From NCBI GenBank assembly GCA_964647075.1, contig CAZYGQ010000004.1, positions 1-33,586 on the forward strand: a stretch of DNA of 33,586 bases, in the 5' to 3' direction. The notes beneath the pieces were generated by a model, which had not been told where the DNA came from, did not search any database, and saw nothing but the letters and a program-made list of their open reading frames with translations. The DNA is from an uncultured Candidatus Saccharibacteria bacterium (GTDB taxonomy: Bacteria > Patescibacteriota > Dojkabacteria > SC72). Positions 29,201-29,877 of the stretch are shown here, piece after piece; position 1 is the first letter of the stretch, and the number at the start of each line of letters is the position of its first letter. A program made the position numbers and the translations under genes.

Positions 29201-29294
29201 CTCGGAGTGTGTTTGTATTAGAAACATATTTACTTACTACAGTACTTTCTGTATTTTGAGCAACCATATTGTAACTATATGTATTATTTTCCAT
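26235..29294 (-). CDS. hsdR: Type I restriction enzyme, R subunit (HsdR)
   Basis: 1019 aa. Nuclease motif [22 protein letters not shown]. Helicase motif I HTTGSGKT. Motif II [10 protein letters not shown]. Later FTGTP and helicase C motifs. Confidence 0.92.
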   Translation of the reverse strand: [1019 protein letters not shown]

Positions 29295-29877
29295 ATTCTT
29301 TGAAGGTTAATAGTTTGTTTCTATAATATTCGTATTGCTTCTTCCTTGCTTCCAATTCTGCTTCCAATTCTGCTTCCAATTCTGCTTCCAATTCTGTAAA
29401 AGAATCTAATATTTTTACTATTTCTTGTTGAATTGGAAGGGCAGGGAGAGGAATTGGCAATTTCCATAGGTAAGACTTATCTAGTTTTGGCATTGAGCCG
29501 CCATAAAGATGATGCTTAAAATTTTGTGATTCATGCTTTACGAAATAGTAAACATATTTAATAAGTGCTTTTTCATCTTTTTGAGTTGCAACAAAACATA
29601 CATCTGTTGCCCAAAACTTATTGGGTAACCAATTTACAAAACCAGCACTTCCTGCACGTGAGATTGTTATTGCATTTTCAAAATTATATTTATTATAATA
29701 ACCAGTAGGTGATGTGCCCCCACCCATAACAGGATATTCAAAATCGCCATCCATCATTGATTTAATAATTCTGTCGCCTGCTTGAAGATTGCAAATTTTA
29801 CTAAATTCTTTAATTTCCACTATCCCTGAGCACAATTCATTAATCAACTTTTCAATATTGTTCATTTTTTTACTCAT
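29284..29877 (-). CDS. hsdS: Type I restriction enzyme specificity subunit (HsdS), half-size with a single target-recognition domain
   Basis: 197 aa, about half the length of typical two-TRD HsdS proteins. Conserved LPIPLPALPIQQEIVKILDSFTELEAELE... helix. Overlaps hsdM by 8 nt and hsdR by 11 nt. Confidence 0.8.
   Translation of the reverse strand: MSKKMNNIEKLINELCSGIVEIKEFSKICNLQAGDRIIKSMMDGDFEYPVMGGGTSPTGYYNKYNFENAITISRAGSAGFVNWLPNKFWATDVCFVATQKDEKALIKYVYYFVKHESQNFKHHLYGGSMPKLDKSYLWKLPIPLPALPIQQEIVKILDSFTELEAELEAELEAELEARKKQYEYYRNKLLTFKEYGK
29348..29395 (-). repeat. perfect in-frame tandem repeat, 12 bp x 4 (GCTTCCAATTCT on the + strand), encoding (ELEA)x4 in HsdS
   Basis: Read directly from the sequence: gcttccaattct gcttccaattct gcttccaattct gcttccaattct. 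The minus-strand codons are GAA TTG GAA GCA. Confidence 0.95.

Follow-up and report, generated by a model that had tools for sequence, protein, structure and literature searches.

A probable Type IC restriction-modification operon with a half-size HsdS and a four-unit helix repeat in an uncultured Candidatus Saccharibacteria bacterium

Type I restriction-modification (R-M) systems combine HsdM, a gamma-class N6-adenine methyltransferase, with HsdS, which carries the Methylase_S target recognition domain (TRD), and HsdR, which joins a PD-(D/E)xK nuclease to a superfamily 2 (SF2) motor. That the number of short repeats in an HsdS helix sets the gap within a Type I target is textbook knowledge, established since EcoR124I and EcoR124II were compared and confirmed by methylome data in Neisseria gonorrhoeae and Helicobacter pylori. 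The EcoR124I site has an N6 gap and the EcoR124II site an N7 gap, a difference that reflects one extra TAEL unit in the latter (PMC3874165). Similarly, gonococcal strains carrying one LEAT unit methylate GACN6TGC and those carrying two methylate GACN7TGC (PMC6789123), and for the group 2 genes of H. pylori the methylated bases are separated by 7 bp with three repeats and by 8 bp with four (PMC3983042). Homodimers of half-size S subunits are also already established, both engineered and natural (NgoAV), and their targets include GAAN7TTC for EcoR124I-delta50, TCAN8TGA for EcoDXXI-deltaC and GCAN8TGC for NgoAV HsdS1 (PMC3874165; PMC9577141). The D1 helices of Type IC enzymes have been shown experimentally to self-pair (PMC3874165), and truncated single-TRD S subunits of Lactococcus methylate palindromes and raise phage resistance (PMC12418389). 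Described here is a Type I operon on contig CAZYGQ010000004.1 of an uncultured Candidatus Saccharibacteria bacterium (33,586 nucleotides, the whole of which is referred to below as the window), in which the hsdS gene encodes one TRD followed by a helix with the repeat (ELEA)x4.

The locus is probably a complete, compact EcoR124-like (Type IC) R-M operon with a natural half-size HsdS, wherein the ELEA tract serves as a gap-setting helix repeat that is fixed at four units. HsdM, HsdS and HsdR all score above the curated cutoffs of Pfam, NCBIfam and PADLOC, so that the three subunits of a Type I system are present. HsdM matches the NCBIfam hsdM model TIGR00497 over its full length with 769.6 bits (cutoff 242.75), and the motifs DPACGSGS and NPPY are visible in its translation. 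HsdR matches TIGR00348 (NCBIfam) with 574 bits and the PADLOC REase_I profile, over its full length, with 1163.8 bits. The presence of the Pfam domain EcoR124_C in HsdR (E = 1.6e-66) together with EcoR124-like conserved regions in HsdS places the system in the Type IC (EcoR124) family, as does the tetra-amino-acid tandem repeat after the TRD, in which (ELEA)x4 aligns to the TAEL repeats of 7bst_A. The genes are arranged compactly on the minus strand in the order hsdM-hsdS-hsdR, with hsdS in the middle; the stop of hsdM overlaps the start of hsdS by 8 nt, and the stop of hsdS overlaps the start of hsdR by 11 nt. Given these overlapping stop and start codons, no second TRD is hidden downstream of hsdS, and tblastn and blastn searches of the window found no further HsdS-like or duplicated hsdS segment. 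The possibility that hsdS is the remnant of a truncation was ruled out, as hsdR begins inside the last hsdS codons. A shufflon or inverton was also ruled out, as the window contains neither a second hsdS segment nor an inverted hsdS repeat; furthermore, the recombinase encoded after hsdR is an integrase of the CcrB/XisF type rather than a shufflon or hsdS invertase, which counts against such an arrangement.

The layout of HsdS, a short N-terminal helix, one TRD and one dimerisation helix, identifies the protein as a half-size specificity subunit, and a second TRD is absent both from the frame and from the sequence downstream. Pfam Methylase_S matches once (residues 21-176, E = 2.2e-29), and while HsdS covers only positions 1-194 of 388 in the PADLOC Specificity_I profile PDLC03144, it covers positions 1-197 of 207 in the half-size profile PDLC03111. 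The open reading frame starts with the ATG at 29877 (MSKKM...), and both the homologues (MNKIEKLI..., MANNINKI...) and the PADLOC profiles align from residue 5; by this alignment, the true start of hsdS may be Met5 at 29865, giving a protein of 193 amino acids (aa). An AlphaFold2 (AF2) monomer model of HsdS was computed from a 48-sequence alignment and has a mean predicted local distance difference test score (pLDDT) of 87 and a predicted template modelling score of 0.83, with a confident TRD and with helices at residues 147-168 and 173-191. The Foldseek matches of this model are HsdS structures (1ydx, 7eew, 1yf2, 5ybb, 3okg and 7bst), and the residues conserved in the family are kept in HsdS. 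Foldseek also matches 8vsq and 8vsr (E ~1e-7, 13-14% identity), which are structures of Esub1 from Streptococcus, a single-TRD protein of 185-196 aa that binds the phage protein paratox and exemplifies a half-S-like protein that stands alone and serves another role.

The tandem repeat (period 12, 100% matches, score 100) is the highest-scoring repeat found in the window by Tandem Repeats Finder. The codons GAA TTG GAA GCA occur four times at 29347-29394 and encode E162-A177, preceded by ILDSFT and followed by RKKQYEYYR. By chance, the window would be expected to contain a lag-12 run as long as this ~2e-17 times. If the peptide (ELEA)x4 and the codon usage of the window are taken as given, four units would be identical in DNA with a probability of ~6e-5, a low value that owes most to the fourfold use of the minor Leu codon TTG (13%); the protein repeat therefore does not in itself account for the DNA identity of the units. 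The best relative of solved structure identified by phmmer is the HsdS of EcoR124 (7bst_A, E = 1.8e-29), and both conserved regions align. Residues 82-194 of HsdS align to the end of TRD1 and the central conserved helix of 7bst_A (segment ILDSFTELEAELEAELEAELEARKKQYEYYRNKLLTFKE), and the helix segment is aligned to ILDSFTELEAELEAELEAELEARKKQYEYYR within 7bst_A residues 85-198. This alignment indicates that the ELEA tract is the positional counterpart of the TAEL repeats. A gap of 4 aa on the EcoR124I side makes the ELEA helix one four-residue unit longer than that of EcoR124I, which has two TAEL units. The linker from LDxF to RKKQY is 17 aa in HsdS; this is the length of the EcoR124II helix and, according to the text of a review, also that of EcoDXXI and NgoAV (PMC3874165). 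Four units are thus the standard EcoR124II/EcoDXXI helix length and not an expansion. A first-pass annotation of this DNA had described a half-size, single-TRD HsdS of 197 aa with a perfect, in-frame 12-bp x4 repeat encoding (ELEA)x4, and these features are confirmed here. Its placement of the repeat in a helix that sets the separation of the TRDs is supported by the alignment to TAEL and by the quantised linkers and one-unit indels of the relatives described below.

Table 1. Coordinates of the R-M operon, of the features within hsdS and of the adjacent recombinase gene.
Feature	Position	Strand	Description	Evidence
hsdM	29870..31456	-	528 aa, Type I N6-adenine methyltransferase	Pfam N6_Mtase (5.4e-115) and HsdM_N; NCBIfam TIGR00497
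hsdS	29284..29877	-	197 aa, half-size specificity subunit	Single Pfam Methylase_S
hsdR	26235..29294	-	1019 aa, Type I restriction/translocase subunit	Pfam HSDR_N, SWI2_SNF2/ResIII, T1R_D3-like, EcoR124_C
Target recognition domain	29443..29820	-	~residues 20-145, mixed beta/alpha	AF2 pLDDT mostly 87-97; Foldseek 1ydx, E 9e-14
C-terminal conserved dimerisation (coiled-coil) helix	29305..29439	-	Residues 147-191	Homologous to EcoR124 HsdS central region D1
12-bp tandem repeat	29347..29396	-	Unit GAATTGGAAGCA on the coding strand, 4.2 copies	Tandem Repeats Finder
Large serine recombinase	24893..26191		CcrB/XisF-like	Pfam, NCBIfam

The family to which HsdS belongs is large. A protein search gave 1476 matches at E <= 1e-3 among 8000 candidates scored, and many of these are proteins of 190-205 aa from H. 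pylori (one cluster of 310 members), Campylobacter jejuni, archaeal metagenome-assembled genomes and metagenomes. Exact-protein look-ups of HsdS (with both starts), HsdM and HsdR in the sequence collection gave no match. DNA was compared for 165 related loci, in which the linker was measured from Q..I...LDxF to RKKQY; 48 are half-size, 105 full length and 12 cut by a contig end. The half-size loci come from many phyla, and approximately 29-31 of them have hsdM and/or hsdR homologues inside the fetched flanks, with hsdR directly downstream in 14. Among half-size genes with a helical (D1) end, the linker is 9 aa (n = 3), 13 aa (n = 12), 17 aa (n = 7) or 14 aa (n = 2), and 20 further half-size genes have a D2-type end (..GLPAEIEAR..). 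The central linker of the full-length genes is 13 aa (n = 48) or 17 aa (n = 44). Linker length in the family is therefore quantised at 9, 13 or 17 aa, and the H. pylori loci of the compared set, which have 13-aa, three-unit linkers, calibrate the counting of units. In the 17-aa class, many genes contain perfect lag-12 runs of 44-50 bp: runs of at least 49 bp are present in 18 of 44 full-length genes, and the half-size locus L024 contains a perfect run of 49 bp. Consequently, a half-size architecture is nothing out of the ordinary in the family, and the same holds for a perfect four-unit array; perfect unit identity is a general family property that does not mark any special activity of hsdS in the window.

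Unit content varies even among the nearest relatives of the HsdS allele. No near-identical allele was found among the matches; the closest one (L001, hsdS at 6001-6582 of that locus) has the same TRD and 81% aa identity, with a 14-aa linker of the form ELEA-R-ELEA-ELEA, a length that falls off the 9/13/17 quantum. Another half-size relative, L002, has a different TRD and three units but shares the C-terminal tail KEYGK with HsdS; in this locus a gene for a 776-aa AAA_13 protein (2387-4717) lies between hsdM and the half-size hsdS, representing an accessory gene embedded in a Type I operon. Changes in unit number were sought by comparing, for all pairs of loci, the 400-bp stretches that precede the linkers. 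The loci L010 and L013 have no mismatches in 300 bp on each side and yet differ by one unit (GAGCTTACAGCG), and the same one-unit difference separates L018 from L097 (Gemmiger formicilis), which have 1 and 0 mismatches in their 300-bp flanks. These pairs belong to alleles of the family other than that of the window. In addition, the full-length relatives L045 and L046 are identical to L053 upstream and unrelated to it downstream, with the junction at the repeat, which is a TRD2 swap by crossover in the repeat tract. In the family, the repeat thus serves for recombination as well as for slippage. Taken together, the quantised linkers, the common four-unit arrays and the one-unit differences between alleles indicate that the tract is an evolutionary dial of gap length in the family.

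The number of units in the source samples was probed using the 20 sequencing runs that matched the locus, all of them as Logan contigs (k = 31), with unit number taken from unitig depths rather than from reads. Bioreactor metagenome runs X1-X5, which come from two studies, carry the locus with a share of 0.98-1.00. In the assembly graph the perfect 50-bp tract folds into a loop, such that contigs break at 29355-29396, and since forms with three or five units add no new 31-mers, the information lies in the depths alone. Of the 12 cyclic 31-mers of a 4.2-copy array, 8 are present in two copies and 4 in a single copy; in a mixture, the depth of the 8-set minus that of the 4-set equals the locus depth D, and the depth of the 4-set divided by D equals the mean number of units minus three. 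The depths of the 34-bp and 38-bp unitigs are 210 and 425 in X2 (mean 3.98 units), 33.6 and 68.1 in X3 (3.97), 16 and 34.9 in X4 (3.85) and 17.4 and 33.8 in X5 (4.06). These estimates contain noise from repeat k-mers that also occur in other organisms, and the test has a sensitivity of ~10-15% and is blind to smaller minorities and to balanced three- and five-unit fractions. The contigs of 14 runs contain no two-unit junction and no 12-bp gap. In at least four samples, the population state is therefore that of four units, with no detectable heterogeneity. The remaining runs offer observations on related genes. Runs X9-X14 contain the repeat k-mers and lack the hsdS flanks, making them uninformative on this allele; the identical (GAATTGGAAGCA)n k-mers found without these flanks in X11, X12 and X14 indicate that the same array occurs in other hsdS genes. 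In runs X6-X8, which are other bioreactor and wastewater runs, contigs match the conserved helix of hsdS and the 3' end of hsdM with the TRD skipped or replaced (window 29434-29881); joints are found at 29434->29881 and 29455->29881, and many loose ends start at 29303-29340. These contigs suggest that related Type I systems whose TRDs have been exchanged coexist in the same communities.

Based on the described systems, a mechanism can be proposed for the enzyme. Two HsdS chains would pair their C-terminal helices in antiparallel fashion to form the equivalent of a full-length S subunit. This dimer, together with two HsdM subunits, would methylate a palindromic, bipartite site, and the addition of HsdR would permit restriction. 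For a 17-aa helix, the expected spacing between the two methylated adenines is 8 nt, as in xxA-N8-Txx for a 3-bp half-site. A 12-bp unit could be gained or lost through slippage or unequal crossing-over with the frame kept, and in a homodimer such a change would alter both helices together, shifting the gap by a predicted 1 bp per unit. The precedents of EcoR124I-delta50, EcoDXXI-deltaC, NgoAV and H. pylori group 2 lead us to infer a homodimeric half-size S subunit, a palindromic site and an 8-nt gap, and activity of the enzyme is presumed by the same analogy. The idea of the first-pass annotation that the protein has to dimerise and read a symmetric, bipartite site is thereby supported by the half-size architecture and by these precedents.

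Several observations weigh against this picture. The AF2 monomer kinks the helix at residues 169-172, inside the ELEA repeat, where the pLDDT is ~72-79; as the partner helix is missing from the monomer model, this kink is probably an artefact. Some single-TRD S genes of H. pylori have no assignable motif (PMC3983042), and the spacing recognized by an engineered half HsdS of Staphylococcus aureus CC398-1 was not predicted from the length of its helix (PMC6158711), so that neither activity nor the exact 8-nt prediction is guaranteed. Likewise, the N-terminal half of hsdS_long from Staphylococcus xylosus alone produces no methylation (PMC10030836). Together with the co-expressed N- and C-terminal halves of EcoDXXI, which restore the wild-type, asymmetric enzyme (PMC3874165), the H. 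pylori and S. xylosus cases would fit an HsdS that forms no homodimer and is inactive, decaying or orphaned, or that needs a second half-size S subunit encoded elsewhere and then reads an asymmetric site. Such a state is nevertheless unlikely for this locus, where hsdM, hsdS and hsdR overlap tightly, are intact and give full-length family matches, and where the window contains no second Methylase_S sequence. The retained family residues, the self-pairing of Type IC D1 helices (PMC3874165) and the recurrence of the half-size form in 48 related loci across phyla, with a dedicated PADLOC profile, also speak for a functional homodimer.

A further alternative concerns the tract itself, which could be actively phase-variable, with cells of three, four and five units coexisting and switching to give N7, N8 and N9 subpopulations. 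The low probability of DNA identity under independent codon choice points to recent duplication or homogenisation of the units, otherwise identical alleles of relatives differ by one-unit indels, and strain-level differences in LEAT, ELSA and TELS repeats are documented (PMC6789123; PMC8836594). Set against this, repeat k-mer depths correspond to 3.85-4.06 units in four runs, with the value for X2 obtained at ~200x, and the two-unit junction is absent from all 14 runs. Perfect arrays are, moreover, the rule in the family even where length is stable, with L002-L005 identical across four runs. In addition, a four-copy 12-bp unit is a weak substrate for slippage compared with classical simple sequence repeats. 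Coexisting, switching subpopulations are accordingly very unlikely, and it is similarly improbable that the homodimeric HsdS of this small-genome, uncultured bacterium carries a register-preserving population switch between N7, N8 and N9 with variants below the depth limit of ~10-15%. The first-pass annotation had read perfect repeat identity as suggesting ongoing slippage and a possible phase-variable element, which for the source population finds no support in the depths or in the commonness of perfect four-unit arrays; differences in unit number do occur between relatives (L010/L013, L018/L097), and by k-mer depth the source samples have approximately four units. The tract in this lineage is thus best described as an evolutionary dial now fixed at four units, and is not demonstrably an active phase-variation switch.

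The surroundings of the operon include the recombinase gene listed in Table 1. A 22-nt core (CCAGACGTGTATGTCCCGCCAT) occurs in five copies at 8524-22822, with 0-2 mismatches and zero copies expected by chance. No copy is found past 22822, and the R-M operon and the large serine recombinase lie just beyond the last copy, a position that is consistent with a recombinase-borne element. The neighbours of the operon encode proteins of 195 aa and 276 aa without Pfam matches, an ADP-ribosylglycohydrolase, a DUF2726 protein and a DUF6994 protein. The regions 23420-24869 and 31615-33560 gave no PADLOC match, and a defence role for these neighbours is unsupported by the PADLOC library.

The locus has little significance beyond annotation, and what is useful in the analysis lies in the comparison of loci. 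Half-size hsdS genes are widespread as natural forms, making up 48 of the 165 related loci and occurring in many phyla. Perfect DNA arrays, and clean indels of a single unit that separate identical alleles, show that the dial has been used repeatedly in nature. The combination of quantised linkers, widespread half-size genes and one-unit indels makes a testable prediction of motif spacing possible for this and similar metagenomic systems, namely 8 nt between the methylated adenines.

Among the described systems, NgoAV of N. gonorrhoeae provides a natural parallel. Like the HsdS described here, it is a natural single-TRD protein of ~200 aa of Type IC-like character, and the helix that follows its TRD contains tetra-amino-acid repeats; it recognizes the palindrome GCAN8TGC, and its repeat number varies between strains with a gap shift of 1 bp per unit (PMC3874165; PMC9577141; PMC6789123). 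In contrast, NgoAV HsdS1 results from a poly-G frameshift, is followed by an hsdS2 remnant and contains a LEAT repeat, whereas the hsdS of the window ends cleanly, overlaps hsdR, lacks a TRD2 remnant or homopolymer switch, encodes an ELEA repeat and comes from an uncultured bioreactor host. The plasmid-borne E. coli systems EcoR124I, EcoR124II and EcoDXXI share the EcoR124_C domain of HsdR and a 12-bp/4-aa repeat at the same position of the D1 helix. These systems differ in having full-length HsdS proteins (two TRDs, ~404 aa) and asymmetric sites, and a change in repeat number affects one of two helices in their HsdS, as opposed to both helices together in a homodimer. EcoR124I-delta50/NT, EcoDXXI-deltaC and S.Lcr of Lactococcus are similar to HsdS in consisting of an N-terminal region, TRD1 and the D1 helix; a model of two M and two S subunits applies to them, their targets are palindromes, and the gap of the engineered homodimers tracks the repeat number, with 7 versus 8 nt between the methylated adenines (PMC3874165; PMC12418389). 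Those proteins are laboratory truncations made from full-length genes, however, while the HsdS of the window is a natural, conserved half-size form from a large family. Finally, H. pylori group 2 and Mycoplasma pneumoniae (ELSA/TELS) also have in-frame 12-bp units in the central helix whose number varies by strain (PMC8836594; PMC3983042), but their S genes are full length, and the tracts of M. pneumoniae are much longer and more variable than the four-unit ELEA tract.

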